In this document: positions 3,427 to 15,373 of the stretch, piece by piece
How the letters are laid out: each line of letters starts with the position of its first letter
Numbering within the stretch: the first letter of the stretch is position 1
Sequence record: PZ386971.1
Length of the DNA: 64,000 nucleotides
Strand: one strand, 5' to 3'
From: a phage
Program-made: the position numbers and the translations under genes
The notes under the pieces: generated by a model
The model's input: only the letters and a program-made list of their open reading frames with translations
Told to the model about the DNA's origin: nothing
The model's database searches: none

Positions 3427-3936
3427 TTATTTGTCAGGGTTCACTAAAACAGGGGTGGATACCAGTTCGCCGTTCTTCACAGAATGCTGGACTACAACAA
3501 ACTGATCGACCATGCGATATACTTCAATTCCAGCAGCCAGCATGTCAATAATGCCGTCTATGATACGATATGGTCGGTCATAGAACACTTTAGCGATCTT
3601 GCCACTGTCGATAATACGACGGGTGCACTCTGGGCATGGACTATGAGTGACAAACATCACTAGGCCACAACAGTCTTCAGTGTGCTGGGGGAGTTTGCTC
3701 AGAGCATTCTCCTCGGCGTGGATAACACCCACCGATACCAGTTGACCGTCTACTTCCTTCTCACAGACATTAGGAGCGCCAGGAGCAGTCCCGTTCCAAC
3801 CGATAGACAGGGGCTGGTCAACACGCGGGTCAACGATAACACAGCCGACCTTCAGGCGCTGGGCATAGCTGGACAGGGCGTATGCATGAGCCGAGCGCAT
3901 ATGCGCAAATAACATACGGGGTTTGATAGCCATCAC
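3427..3936 (-). CDS. cd: dCMP deaminase
   Basis: Zinc-binding deaminase motifs HAEENA and PCPEC present in the 169-aa ORF. Confidence 0.85.
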   Translation of the reverse strand: MMAIKPRMLFAHMRSAHAYALSSYAQRLKVGCVIVDPRVDQPLSIGWNGTAPGAPNVCEKEVDGQLVSVGVIHAEENALSKLPQHTEDCCGLVMFVTHSPCPECTRRIIDSGKIAKVFYDRPYRIIDGIIDMLAAGIEVYRMVDQFVVVQHSVKNGELVSTPVLVNPDK

Positions 3937-4247
3937 ATCACCAGTTTCTTTTCAAGGAGGAAGATCATGTCGTCTTGGTCTGCACGACCAAAGATCTGAC
4001 CCATGGCGACCATCTGGTGGACTTCCCTGACAATGATTTCTTTACCAGGAGTAACTTCATCCAGGTCCATGATAGTGCTGACGCGGTCTACCATGCGCGG
4101 CGGGTGATTAATGTAGCGCTGCAGGTACTTCTCGCGAGTGGCAATCAGGTTGTTCAGCTCGGAGATTTCAGACTCTTCTTCTGAGAAGCGCTTTTCCTTC
4201 GCCTGCAGTTCAGCCAGGCGCTCATACATTTCTTTTAATGGGGTCAT
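3933..4247 (-). CDS. hypothetical protein
   Basis: 104-aa ORF; its stop overlaps the start of cd. Confidence 0.5.
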   Translation of the reverse strand: MTPLKEMYERLAELQAKEKRFSEEESEISELNNLIATREKYLQRYINHPPRMVDRVSTIMDLDEVTPGKEIIVREVHQMVAMGQIFGRADQDDMIFLLEKKLVM

Positions 4248-4316
4248 TTCCGGTTCCTCTTAATAAACGAAGGGAAGTATATACTCCCCCTTCTTCAATA
4301 ACCGCTGAATCTTTAT

Positions 4317-4646
4317 TCAGAGATAAGATTTACCGAGTTCGGTCAGGCGATAGAACGTCACCTCAGTGTTCGGCCAGTTCACGTAAGAACCGTCATGAAC
4401 CATTGAGCCAGCTGGTTCGATCAACCCCTTGGCGAGCAGGGAAGCCCCAGTGCGGGGGTTGCCTTTGACGGAGGTGAAACCACCAGCGTTCGGGCATACC
4501 TGGAACGTCCAGACGGTGTTGCCCTTGTCATTGGTCCAGGATTTGGGATGAAAGTACCATTCACCATAACGGTAATGACCTTTCTCAAAGTTCAACATTC
4601 CTAAAAGGACGCAGAGTTGATGTCCTGTGATGCGCGGCTTTTTCAT
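4317..4646 (-). CDS. hypothetical protein
   Basis: Start refined to the MKKPRI methionine, which forms an ATGA overlap with the stop of the upstream gene. Confidence 0.45.
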   Translation of the reverse strand: MKKPRITGHQLCVLLGMLNFEKGHYRYGEWYFHPKSWTNDKGNTVWTFQVCPNAGGFTSVKGNPRTGASLLAKGLIEPAGSMVHDGSYVNWPNTEVTFYRLTELGKSYL

Positions 4647-4960
4647 GACAATACTCCTTTCAGAGCTAAAACGGAAAGCACACCAATAATCAACCATGTC
4701 GGGATAATTGGCTTGCAGTTCATGTGGGTTTCTCCACCTTCGATGTTCGGGCTTCCTTGTATAAGAACGTGTTCACAGGAAGCTCTGAACGTCATTACAC
4801 AGCCCATCAACACAATTGGCCTGATATAATAACCCGTTTTAGTTTGCTTCACGATACATGGAGAGGAGAAGCGCAGATATGGATCCCCTTTCCGGTAGCC
4901 TGTGATTGTGACCTTCTGCACTTCAGAAGGCACTTTTTGGCCAGGAAAATAAATTTTCAT
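4643..4960 (-). CDS. hypothetical protein with C-terminal transmembrane helix
   Basis: 105-aa ORF; hydrophobic C-terminal segment [15 protein letters not shown]. Confidence 0.45.
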
Positions 4961-7101: not shown

Positions 7102-7716
7102 TCACCCCTCCTCGTCGATGATTTCTTGCTCATCTTCGACAATCATGATACCTTCTGCGTCCAGATGAGAAAGTTCCATCAGATCATTATCGAATCCGTC
7201 TCCTTCCCTGATATAGAAGACTGGGACGACACGACGGCGGGTCTCTTCATACACGCTTTCAGAGATTCGATTGATATGGCGTACTACACTGTAGAGGTTC
7301 AGGCCACCAATACCACAGCCGATAGCAGGCAGGCCGACATAGACAGTTTCGTCTTTAGTTGCTTCCACAATTTCATGCACCTGCTCAAACAGGGTCTGAA
7401 CAGAACTGATGACAGACGGCATGCGAGCGTTCGGGCCTGGATAAAACTGAGTGTAGAGGTTCGCGCCCCAAACGCCCTTGCTGTGGTCAAATGCATAGGA
7501 CATACCACCCAGGCGTTGCTCTGGACCACGAGGGTCGTTCGCATCGACTTCGCGCAGCGCTGGGAAGTTGTTGCCGATGTGCAGAGCAATGCCCGCACCC
7601 ATGGTAGACCAGCAGTTGGCACCGTGGGCAAAGATGTCGATCAGATTGAAGCTACAGGCGGCTTTCAGTAGATCGCCGCCATTGATTACATATGTGGTCA
7701 TGCGTACTGTCTCCAT
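7102..7716 (-). CDS. macro-domain protein (ADP-ribose binding/hydrolase-like) with acidic C-terminal tail
   Basis: HGANCWSTMGAGIALHI and GLPAIGCGIGGLN resemble the two conserved macrodomain loops (NAAN...GGGV and P-x-I-x-T-G-x-x-G). Confidence 0.6.
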   Translation of the reverse strand: METVRMTTYVINGGDLLKAACSFNLIDIFAHGANCWSTMGAGIALHIGNNFPALREVDANDPRGPEQRLGGMSYAFDHSKGVWGANLYTQFYPGPNARMPSVISSVQTLFEQVHEIVEATKDETVYVGLPAIGCGIGGLNLYSVVRHINRISESVYEETRRRVVPVFYIREGDGFDNDLMELSHLDAEGIMIVEDEQEIIDEEG

Positions 7717-12291: not shown

Positions 12292-12340
12292 CGGCCTATC
12301 CCGTCAATGGTAAACACACAAGATTATGTATGGGGTCGGC

Positions 12341-12922
12341 TTATAGACCAAATTTGCTACGCCACTTTTCAACCTTGTGTTCAATAGCGTGCTCCACTTT
12401 AATGCGAGTGGCCATCAAAGAGGATCCATGGATCGCCCCTTCCCCACACCCCATGCGCGCAACATGCTTGATTAGGTCATTGACGAGTTGATCCAATCTG
12501 TCTTGACTGCGATAAGGCTGGTTGCACAACCGGATAATCCGGCCATGATAATGATGGATAAGATTCAGATGCTTTTGAGGATCACGATCAATCAGACGGA
12601 ACCAGTCTTCTTCCAACAGATTAGAAGAAATATCGTTCACTGTCGCCATGTGGTTGATGACAGAGTCGATCATTTCGGCCTTGTTCATAGAGCCGCGCAT
12701 TTGGACGTCGTCATAATCCATGACGTACAGAAGGTCAATAGCAGAGATAATGACATCAGCAACTTCGCCATTCAACGGCTCAGAAGATACTATGCCATGA
12801 AACACATCAGACAGTTCACAGATCTCTTCACCTAGTTTGTTCAGAACAAACACAGGCGAGCGGTCTGGGGTATGAGCAGTGCAGTCATAAGAAGCGTCGA
12901 CGATAGTGTGTAGAAATTTCAT
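12341..12922 (-). CDS. hypothetical protein
   Basis: 193-aa ORF. Confidence 0.5.
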   Translation of the reverse strand: MKFLHTIVDASYDCTAHTPDRSPVFVLNKLGEEICELSDVFHGIVSSEPLNGEVADVIISAIDLLYVMDYDDVQMRGSMNKAEMIDSVINHMATVNDISSNLLEEDWFRLIDRDPQKHLNLIHHYHGRIIRLCNQPYRSQDRLDQLVNDLIKHVARMGCGEGAIHGSSLMATRIKVEHAIEHKVEKWRSKFGL

Positions 12923-13422
12923 TTCAAAGTTCCTTGTATGCGGAGACGATTAATGTGGGCAATGATATAGTCCATAGAGTTTTGAAAACTGTATTTCCCG
13001 TTCTGAACGTATGCATGGATCAGGGGTAGGCGACTGTACGCCAATCTGATCTTCAGACGTTCAGGCATTGTCTGGAGTTTCATACTAGTTGCAAATAGGA
13101 TATCGCGCTTGAATTCTTCGGTAGACGGGTCCAGGACAATGACGCGGGAAGCCGCCAATCCCTGTCCATATTGCTTGGCCTCATAACCGTCGAGCAGGCG
13201 CAGGTTGTCATCCCTATACTTCAGCCAATACCAGTACCCCTCCATGGAGTTAAACACACCATGTTCATGGGTAGTCATTGGATGATGGGTAAAATGCGAG
13301 AGGAAGCGCCCGAGTTCCGTCTGGCTCCGGCTGTAGATGTTGAAGTGATTCTTACCCTCTGTTGCAGGGGTCATCTTGTTCTGTGGAACGCTCATTAACA
13401 GCATCATGATGTAGTTTCTCAA
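12919..13422 (-). CDS. NADAR-like (YbiA-like N-glycosidase/ADP-ribose-processing) protein, tentative
   Basis: FNIYSRS...GRFLSHF...FNSMEGYWYWLKY resembles the YbiA/NADAR pattern FYS.S..G.FSNF...SEHYFQA.KF (recalled from memory). Confidence 0.4.
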   Translation of the reverse strand: MRNYIMMLLMSVPQNKMTPATEGKNHFNIYSRSQTELGRFLSHFTHHPMTTHEHGVFNSMEGYWYWLKYRDDNLRLLDGYEAKQYGQGLAASRVIVLDPSTEEFKRDILFATSMKLQTMPERLKIRLAYSRLPLIHAYVQNGKYSFQNSMDYIIAHINRLRIQGTLK

Positions 13423-14315: not shown

Positions 14316-14573
14316 TCATTCCTCTTCATATTTGCCTGTCCTGAAGTTCCACTTTCGCGCATTCTTCAGGTCGAGGTCTTTGAAGATGTTTCCAAAGATC
14401 TTTTGGAAGGAGGTCTGCTCTTGTTCTTCCTCAAGATCCTTGGGCTTCTTGACAGGCTCTTTCACCATACCGCCTTCGGGTTTCCCCACATCGGCGGTCG
14501 TGGTTCCAGGGGCTGCTGAGTCTTCAAGGAAGTCCTGGAAGCCTTTCATGATTAGACCGCAGCCATTTCGCAA
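14316..14573 (-). CDS. hypothetical acidic protein
   Basis: 85-aa ORF followed by terminator. Confidence 0.4.
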   Translation of the reverse strand: MRNGCGLIMKGFQDFLEDSAAPGTTTADVGKPEGGMVKEPVKKPKDLEEEQEQTSFQKIFGNIFKDLDLKNARKWNFRTGKYEEE

Positions 14574-15373
14574 CGAGTAGAGGTCACAGAGTGGCCGTCA
14601 GCGTCTTCAACAACACACCAGTACTCACCCTCGTTTTCGGCAGCAACTGCAGTGATAACCAGGCTCGCAGTTGCAGCAGTGGGGTTAGTGCCAGCATCGA
14701 TCACCTCACCTTCACCACCAGGGACATCAGAGAAGTACCAAGTATGTGTGTATGGGGTAGTGCCGCCTGTAGCAGCGATGGTGAAGGTTGCGGATTCACC
14801 TGTTGTTACATCCTGAGAAGCAGCCAGATCGGTAGACAGAGACAGAGCGCCAGCCACTGTGATGACGGTAGAGTCAGTGTGGTCACCTTCGATGGTTACA
14901 CCGTAAACAGTCACTGAACCCGGTGCCAGCAGCTTGAATTTACCACCACCGATGTGCACAGCTTTGGTCAGATCGCCAGAGTACCAGTTGACACCCTGGT
15001 AGGTCGCGTTCTCCGGAGCGACGACCGCCTTCAGTTCAACAACCTGACCGACTTCACCATTAGCAGTTTCAGGGGTGATGGTCAGGCCAGTGGTCAGCAC
15101 AGCGCTTGGGTCGTGGATTTCATAAGACAGCTGGAAGCCAACGGGCTTGGTTGGATCCACTTTGGTGACGCCATCGGCCTGCAAATTGCTCTTGGTCAGC
15201 AGTGCATCCAGACCTTTACACTCAGTCAGGATCTCGTCTGGGTCTTGGTTAAGACTGGTCTTTTCCCAACCACGAGCAGTACCTGTTACAGTGTGAAGAC
15301 GCTCAGTTTCCGGTTTGTTGCGAACAACTTCCGGTGCTACTAATACAGTGATCGTTGGCATGGTTTCCTCCAC
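14552..15373 (-). CDS. Ig-like domain protein (Big_2-like plus I-set-like domain)
   Basis: VAPENATYQGVNWYSGD...VTVYGVTIEGD resembles Big_2; C-terminal GEYWCVVEDADGHS resembles an Ig-fold core. Confidence 0.6.
   Translation of the reverse strand: MEETMPTITVLVAPEVVRNKPETERLHTVTGTARGWEKTSLNQDPDEILTECKGLDALLTKSNLQADGVTKVDPTKPVGFQLSYEIHDPSAVLTTGLTITPETANGEVGQVVELKAVVAPENATYQGVNWYSGDLTKAVHIGGGKFKLLAPGSVTVYGVTIEGDHTDSTVITVAGALSLSTDLAASQDVTTGESATFTIAATGGTTPYTHTWYFSDVPGGEGEVIDAGTNPTAATASLVITAVAAENEGEYWCVVEDADGHSVTSTRCEMAAV

Follow-up and report, generated by a model that had tools for sequence, protein, structure and literature searches.

Does this locus encode an enzyme that strips ADP-ribose from phage DNA? 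The question is raised by an open reading frame (ORF) in sequence record PZ386971.1, of which we analysed a stretch of 64,000 nucleotides (hereafter the window). The window comes from a Vi01-like myovirus (Ackermannviridae, subfamily Aglimvirinae, Agtrevirus-like). An earlier reading of its letters alone, here called the sequence-only reading, had placed a NADAR/YbiA-like protein at positions 12919..13422. The ORF is present there on the minus strand (167 amino acids counted from a TTG codon) with the quoted strings FNIYSRS, GRFLSHF and FNSMEGYWYWLKY; it is a conserved gene and not a chance ORF. Structure prediction, profile–profile comparison and the catalytic residues agree, and on these predictive grounds the encoded protein is confirmed as a highly diverged member of the NADAR superfamily. 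Concerning its function, the best-supported reading, which we regard as evenly poised between right and wrong, is that of an active ADP-ribosyl N-glycohydrolase that would remove guanine-linked ADP-ribose from phage DNA and thereby counter DarT1-type toxins.

The superfamily assignment is carried by a structural model and by comparisons between families. An AlphaFold2 model, computed from an alignment of 26 members of the protein's family, reached a predicted local distance difference test score (pLDDT) of 93.2 and a predicted template modelling score of 0.86. When this model was compared with the PDB by Foldseek, the only high-probability matches were E. coli YbiA (2b3w, E 6e-4), the G. lovleyi NADAR (8bat) and the P. 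nicotianae NADAR (8bau), and all remaining matches had E > 2. Likewise, the matches among predicted viral structures were, past close relatives, mostly NADAR-annotated proteins. For profile–profile comparison a second alignment was built from the family of T4 gp30.3, also known as AdfN. Aligned by hhalign, the two families matched with 96.1% probability (E 3.3e-9) over 139 columns, i.e. nearly the whole protein. The comparison with the single YbiA sequence gave E 3.4e-5 over the N-terminal 93 columns and paired INFYSTS/FSNF/SEHYFQAQK of YbiA with NIYS/FLSHF/SMEGYWYWLK of the window protein. Together with the catalytic equivalents described below, these results bear out the NADAR/YbiA-like call of the sequence-only reading.

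Simpler searches returned little. Neither the single sequence nor the family profile retrieved anything above chance level among PDB sequences, and a Pfam scan of the 26 family members found no PF08719, while only two of the 26 reached PF08010 (Phage_30_3), at a sub-threshold E of 0.013. A calibration within the superfamily puts such values into perspective: the gp30.3 family itself reaches YbiA at E 0.0036 in a hidden Markov model (HMM) search and at E 6e-8 with hhalign, so that a faint sequence signal is normal inside the NADAR superfamily. The argument that a protein without a Pfam match cannot be a NADAR was rejected, because the validated gp30.3 family manages no better than E 0.0036 with YbiA in the HMM search. 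The profile search proposed as a check in the sequence-only reading thus had a divided outcome: the standard Pfam NADAR profile was blank, and the fold and profile–profile searches gave NADARs only and no unrelated family. Judged by these alignments, the protein is best described as a distinct subfamily, sister or divergent to gp30.3, and would not be a bona fide PF08010 member because it is itself unmatched and only the two sub-threshold relatives approach that model.

The residues on which NADAR catalysis depends have equivalents in the window protein. In characterised NADARs, the Glu of an S-x-E motif contacts the distal ribose (P. nicotianae E43, E. coli C7 E88, T4 E36), and a Lys seven residues further on (P. 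nicotianae K50, E. coli C7 K95, T4 K43) binds phosphate and is essential for hydrolysis; in T4 AdfN, E36A and K43A each abolish function (PMC11257639). Phage NADARs of the gp30.3 type carry a His in the last strand, which replaces the catalytic Glu of the YbiA type or the Asp of the BC4488/DarG1 type (PMC11543638, PMC11125620). By hhalign, E56, K63 and H131 of the window protein pair with T4 E36, K43 and H123. Specifically, Glu56 (codon 13240..13242, minus strand, as for all codons here) lies in the S-x-E-G motif and also corresponds to YbiA E48; Lys63 (13219..13221) follows at the same distance of seven residues; and His131 (13015..13017) sits in the strand L-P-L-I-H-A-Y. The Glu is present in all 191 family sequences with a residue at that column, and the His in 190 of 191. 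Absence of the catalytic residues had been named in advance as a finding that would speak against a NADAR, and all three are in place. In addition, the invariant loop A77-K78-x-x-G81 (Ala77-Lys78 codons, 13174..13179; family alignment) aligns with A-R-M-G-R of YbiA ('aarmgr' in the hhalign output); from the motif spacing and published work (PMC11543638), it probably corresponds to K75..G78-R79 of the P. nicotianae NADAR, which flank the pyrophosphate.

How would such a protein work? We infer its enzymatic activity, its substrate and its role against DarTG1 as follows. A small, stand-alone NADAR-fold enzyme, belonging to a large, divergent and phage-dominated clade with T4 gp30.3/AdfN as its nearest characterised relative, would bind the ADP-ribose moiety in a cleft lined by the helix S-x-E56-G-Y-W-Y-W-L-K63, the A77-K78-x-x-G81 loop and the His131 strand. 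It would then cleave, by hydrolysis, the N-glycosidic bond that links the distal ribose to the nucleobase, and so strip ADP-ribose from guanines of phage DNA that had been modified by DarT1-type toxins of the host. Expressed from the early/middle replication block (rIIA ... topoisomerase), it would act as an orphan, antitoxin-like counter-defence. This reading draws on the analogy with NADAR-Bas32, NADAR-Bas60 and T4 gp30.3, the last a biochemically and genetically validated NADAR that takes ADP-ribose off DNA and defeats DarTG1 (PMC11257639, PMC11125620). All NADAR subtypes tested hydrolyse guanine-ADP-ribose in vitro (PMC11125620), and three phage NADARs neutralise DarTG1 (PMC11125620, PMC11257639). 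AdfN works best on T-even DNA, i.e. protection in vivo is substrate- and context-specific (PMC11257639).

Several observations weigh against a guanine-specific counter-defence enzyme. First, the common domain models do not recognise the protein: a Pfam scan gave no match even at E ≤ 10, PF08719 (NADAR) and PF08010 included, an NCBIfam scan was blank as well, and the assignment therefore needs structure prediction and profile–profile methods; BLASTP against T4 gp30.3 was not significant either. Second, position 63 is Lys in only 33 of 191 members, mostly of the Ackermannviridae-like clade. Members that lack K63 mostly have Arg or Lys at position 82 (the equivalent of P. nicotianae R79), which is Gln82 in the window protein (13162-13164). 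Among 194 sequences, uncorrected for phylogeny, basic residues at the two positions are anticorrelated (27 with K/R at 63 only, 133 at 82 only, 9 at both, 25 at neither); the alignment pattern may reflect a swap of the phosphate-binding basic residue, in sequences that are phylogenetically non-independent. Third, the D-x-x-W-G motif of canonical NADARs and the T-x-L-T..E-F of gp30.3 are both missing from the C-terminal third, so the substrate pocket may differ; in the alignment and the AlphaFold2 model, the segment past His131 is a β-hairpin in which Y133 is invariant and position 138 is usually basic. Fourth, one study saw no rescue of DarT1 toxicity by T4 gp30.3 (PMC11125620), and activity in vitro is thus no guarantee of antitoxin function. 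Our literature searches retrieved no paper linking Ackermannviridae with NADAR or DarTG, and none on the family of the window protein. Finally, fusions to SLOG, Macro and DUF4326 domains, as found in family members, have been interpreted in terms of soluble ADP-ribose derivatives (PMC9503650) rather than DNA adducts.

The divergent C-terminal part bears on a first alternative, in which the enzyme would reverse some other ADP-ribosylation of nucleic acids: cytosine-linked ADP-ribose, ADP-ribosylated RNA, or adducts of non-DarT toxins (pierisin/ScARP-like or YarT-like), with a specificity that may be tuned to the hypermodified DNA of Ackermannviridae. In its aromatic G-Y-W-Y-W helix as well as in the C-terminal pocket region, the protein departs from both canonical NADARs and gp30.3. 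Moreover, NADARs also remove cytidine-ADP-ribose (PMC12945103), a YarT-YbiA pair exists (PMC11125620), and AdfN is specific for its own modified DNA (PMC11257639). However, the hosts have no known cognate toxin, and hhalign finds the conserved core residues identical to those of guanine-ADP-ribose hydrolases. We consider this alternative quite unlikely.

The domain fusions point in another direction. Among the longer family members, fusion partners of the NADAR-like domain are Macro domains (P0175, P0198, P0260 and P0280), SLOG domains of the YpsA, YAcAr or DprA-like type (P0189, P0166, P0174, P0180 and a protein of Erwinia phage Ea35-70) and DUF4326 (P0168, P0189, P0244, P0250, P0260 and P0280); further partners are DUF488-N3a, a metallophosphoesterase and a canonical PF08719 NADAR. 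These partners match exactly the SLOG-Macro-NADAR-DUF4326 network of DNA viruses described by Iyer, Burroughs, Anantharaman and Aravind in 2022 and read mainly as processing of soluble ADP-ribose derivatives (PMC9503650); the domain associations of the family are thus ADP-ribose-related. As a side observation, the jumbo phage Ea35-70 has, at 3495-4852, a Macro gene directly followed by a gene for a 293-amino-acid NADAR-like protein with a C-terminal, YAcAr-like SLOG domain, a tight pair as compared with the 5 kb that separate the two gene types in the window. Metagenomic homologues occur near Thg1, PTH2 and nucleotidyltransferase-like genes, and the contexts of two distant ones held phage-like, mostly unannotated genes with no DarT/ART neighbour.

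From these associations it could be argued that the protein is an active NADAR hydrolase that works, together with the phage Macro protein, on soluble ADP-ribose derivatives instead of DNA adducts. Candidate substrates would be cyclic-ADP-ribose isomers or other ADP-ribose conjugates serving as immune signals, or by-products of NAD+-consuming defence or of RNA repair. The recurrent SLOG, Macro and DUF4326 fusions, the low-molecular-weight ADP-ribose processing that Iyer et al. assign to this domain set (PMC9503650), the Macro gene adjoining the Ea35-70 homologue and the Thg1, PTH2 and nucleotidyltransferase-like neighbours all favour this view. Yet every assayed NADAR acts on base-linked ADP-ribose in nucleic acids, and degradation of an immune signal has so far been shown for none of them (PMC11543638, PMC11125620, PMC12945103). 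In addition, the nearest characterised relative, AdfN, works on DNA (PMC11257639), and the window protein stands alone with no fused partner. A soluble substrate is therefore possible, though unlikely in our judgement.

The distribution and conservation of the family were assessed next to its domain content. By tblastn, the gene was found in 543 phage records, in 370 of them with at least 80% query coverage and 30–99% identity; it occurs in all Ackermannviridae genera and, at 30–40% identity, in many jumbo, Vibrio, Erwinia, Pseudomonas and Ralstonia phages. A search with the family profile at a cutoff of E ≤ 1e-3 retrieves 1839 cluster representatives (clustered at 50% identity); a cutoff of E ≤ 1e-10 leaves 1283. 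Among 191 diverse members, ∼30 positions reach 90% conservation or more and concentrate in recognised active-site motifs of NADARs; these positions include G18, H21, N23, Y25, S26, L36, F39, G50, F52, S54, E56, G57, Y58, W59, Y60, W61, L62, G74, A77, K78, G81, F99, A106, K110, P128, H131 and Y133. This conservation pattern is typical of an enzyme. Existing annotation is sparse: the protein falls into PHROG_652 ('unknown function', 2e-53), and among hundreds of database entries for homologues almost every one reads 'hypothetical protein'. A homologue in Serratia phage Moabite is labelled N-glycosidase from an HHpred match to 2B3W, and one in a Kuttervirus is named 'putative N-glycosidase'.

Two further features of the orthologues were noted. 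In several Limestonevirus and other records (Dickeya phages Ds3CZ, phiDP23.1, PP35 and XF4, Escherichia phage A221 and Salmonella phage GG32), the orthologue is annotated at only 108–119 amino acids and lacks the N-terminal strand motifs; either the starts were called wrongly or the alleles are truncated, as may be the case. By comparison, truncation of adfN renders RB69 DarTG1-sensitive. Also, the orthologue of Salmonella phage vB_CECAV_050 (10681-11169) is labelled 'virion structural protein', with no evidence cited.

Such a label raises the idea of a catalytically inert NADAR-fold protein that would be a binder or a structural component of the virion. Packaging of NADAR and Macro proteins in the heads of some myoviruses has been proposed (PMC9503650), and in the family at large the essential Lys varies. 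However, the conserved positions lie in the NADAR active-site motifs and include E56, K78 and H131, the structural label is an unsupported one found in a single relative, and the gene belongs to an early/replication block, not to a morphogenesis block. An inert protein is thus extremely improbable.

The sequence-only reading had also pointed to a macrodomain protein 5 kb away and proposed that the two proteins form complementary erasers of DNA ADP-ribosylation. The macrodomain gene is present at 7102..7716 on the minus strand, 5.2 kb from the NADAR-like gene, and encodes a T4 Tk.4-like protein of the DarG/TARG1 class (annotated Tk.4 in relatives). Its start is probably ATG 7701, because the relatives are 199 amino acids long. 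The protein itself has a sub-threshold Pfam match (E 0.009), and its homologues carry PF01661. Searched against the PDB, the family profile hits first the DarG proteins of M. tuberculosis (5m3i, 8e-16) and T. aquaticus (5m31, 2.8e-15), both identified as DarG macrodomains (PMC5179494), and then TARG1 (1e-12); the AlphaFold2 model has a pLDDT of 94.7. An invariant Gln90 (N-L-Y-T-Q-F-Y-P-G) stands opposite the catalytic Lys80 of DarG (N-F-P-T-K-K-H-W), and the Asn equivalent, N34, is kept. The catalytic Lys is K80 in T. aquaticus DarG, K84 in TARG1 and K78 in PhiKZ AdfM, and K80A inactivates DarG (PMC5179494 for K80A).

The alignment suggests that this macrodomain differs in mechanism or substrate from DarG2-type thymine de-ADP-ribosylation, and removal of thymine-linked ADP-ribose by it appears doubtful since Gln90 replaces the catalytic Lys. 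Of the two-eraser proposal, the co-occurrence of both domain types in one genome therefore stands, but the complementary activity is weakened by Gln90, and the two-pronged picture is best treated as a hypothesis. A more far-reaching view combines several of the observations above. It holds that a large NADAR-fold clade (at least ∼1800 clusters at 50% identity), unseen by Pfam, has a remodelled C-terminal half of the active site, often without the canonical Lys, and would act not on DarT1 adducts but on soluble ADP-ribose-derived immune signals or on undescribed forms of nucleic-acid ADP-ribosylation; with the Lys-less, DarG-like macrodomain it would form a two-enzyme pathway specific to phages with hypermodified DNA. 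We regard this view as unlikely.

Concerning the gene itself, the most likely start is ATG 13407 (MMLLMSVPQ..., 162 amino acids) and TTG 13422 is unlikely, because homologues are 160–162 amino acids long and relatives have the gene annotated with 489 nt. The coding sequence, including the stop codon, would thus span 12919..13407 on the minus strand. The five additional codons from the TTG (13408..13422), as judged from the sequence and the homologue lengths, are probably an untranslated leader, with a weak GAGA Shine–Dalgarno sequence upstream of the ATG. The 2.5 kb around the gene is 98.6–98.9% identical to Enterobacter phage fGh-Ecl02 and Escherichia phages YX22 and AV101. The gene lies within a long minus-strand block of early/replication type, which contains rIIA, rIIB, a histone-like protein, a small membrane protein, the NADAR-like and MazG-like genes, two topoisomerase II subunits, the Tk.4-like macrodomain, a DexA-like exonuclease, a phosphoesterase and a dCMP deaminase. 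A scan for promoters and terminators near the NADAR-like gene found only a 10/12 promoter-like site at 14268-14241, upstream of the histone-like gene.

Immediately downstream lies a MazG-like pyrophosphatase gene (12341..12922, minus strand; PHROG_1247 MazG-like, 5e-35). The stop codon of the NADAR-like gene (12921-12919) overlaps its ATG (ATGA), and owing to this overlap the two genes are probably translationally coupled. The MazG-like protein is blank in Pfam, and its sole PDB sequence match, the phage MazZ pyrophosphohydrolase 7ody, is at chance level (E 0.26); a link with the thymidine hypermodification of Vi01-like phages is possible. The pairing was checked in the distant phage Ea35-70, where the MazG-like neighbour is not conserved.

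This arrangement is the starting point for one more alternative, a YbiA-like N-glycosidase of nucleotide metabolism that would cooperate with the MazG-like pyrophosphatase in sanitising or remodelling the nucleotide pool from which phage DNA is made or modified, instead of taking part in counter-defence. The stop/start overlap and a setting among dCMP deaminase, exonuclease and topoisomerase genes agree with it, YbiA is an N-glycosidase of riboflavin intermediates (PMC11125620), and some GenBank homologues bear the 'N-glycosidase' label. However, the MazG pairing is not conserved in the distant context of Ea35-70, the fusion partners of the family are ADP-ribose-processing and not nucleotide-biosynthesis domains, and YbiA also hydrolyses guanine-ADP-ribose (PMC11125620). 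A role in nucleotide pools is hence highly unlikely.

Two observations concern the wider surroundings. At the junction of the topoisomerase and MazG-like genes (12292-12340), an HNH/homing endonuclease gene of ∼830 bp is inserted in several close relatives (vB_EcoM-RPN242, vB_CECAV_050, PC3/PH4 and LIMEstone1); it is absent from the window, fGh-Ecl02 and YX22, i.e. a presence/absence polymorphism exists beside the NADAR-like gene. Between rIIB and the histone-like gene, at 14552-15373 on the minus strand, lies a gene for a 273-amino-acid Ig-like/Big_2 protein, termed 'tail fiber' or 'tail protein' in relatives, a structural-type gene oddly placed within the early/replication block.

What does the locus add to present knowledge? 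Phage NADARs as orphan, antitoxin-like counter-defence were published in 2023–2024, and the co-occurrence of NADAR, Macro and SLOG in large phages in 2022. Taken with that work, the window protein is a credible additional example of a known counter-defence and not a new kind of system. If it is active, the AdfN-type orphan-antitoxin strategy reaches beyond T4-like, T5-like and rV5-like phages to the whole of the Ackermannviridae, a family with members applied in therapy and biocontrol (Vi01-, CBA120-, LIMEstone- and Agtrevirus-type phages), and also to many jumbo phages. PHROG_652, 'hypothetical' in hundreds of genomes, gains a testable function, and the existence of a NADAR clade that standard domain models miss is relevant to anyone surveying anti-defence genes. 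The Lys-less, DarG-like macrodomain poses a separate testable question, namely how, or whether, such phages handle thymine ADP-ribosylation.

Among known systems, T4 gp30.3/AdfN (PF08010, Phage_30_3) is the closest match. Both are small, stand-alone phage proteins of ∼150–160 amino acids from an early gene block; both have the S-x-E-G motif with Lys at +7, an A-(K/x)-x-x-G loop and the His in the last strand; and both end in a C-terminal helix, the loss of which inactivates the RB69 allele (PMC11257639). They differ in the helix that follows the Glu (G-Y-W-Y-W-L in the window protein versus G-F-L-Q-x-x in AdfN) and after the His, where gp30.3 has an invariant T-x-L-T..E-F and the window protein has Y133 and K138 on a β-hairpin. 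Moreover, the window phage belongs to the Ackermannviridae with their different DNA chemistry, and the activity of its protein is a prediction. In contrast to canonical NADAR/YbiA proteins (PF08719; YbiA 2B3W, the G. lovleyi DarG1-type NADAR 8BAT and the P. nicotianae NADAR 8BAU), the window protein has no Pfam match, a His where the YbiA type has its catalytic Glu and the DarT1-linked type its Asp, and no D-x-x-W-G pyrophosphate-binding motif.

DarG1, the DarT1-associated NADAR, is encoded in an operon with DarT1, uses a catalytic Asp (D171 in E. coli C7) and has an N-terminal extension to the YbiA fold. None of these features is shared by the window protein, which has only 162 amino acids and has a membrane protein and the MazG-like protein as neighbours, with no adjacent DarT. 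The viral SLOG-Macro-NADAR-DUF4326 proteins (PMC9503650) resemble the family in that members occur in such fusions and beside Macro genes, whereas the window protein stands alone and its Macro gene is 5 kb off, with topoisomerase and other genes between. Finally, the NADARs of Bas32 (Markadamsvirinae) and Bas60 (Vequintavirinae) are orphan NADARs of non-T4 phages that neutralise DarTG1 and set a precedent for independent recruitment (PMC11257639). They are reported to cluster with archaeal or bacterial NADARs and were found by a conserved-domain (DELTA-BLAST) search (PMC11257639), whereas the family described here is invisible to Pfam and NCBIfam.

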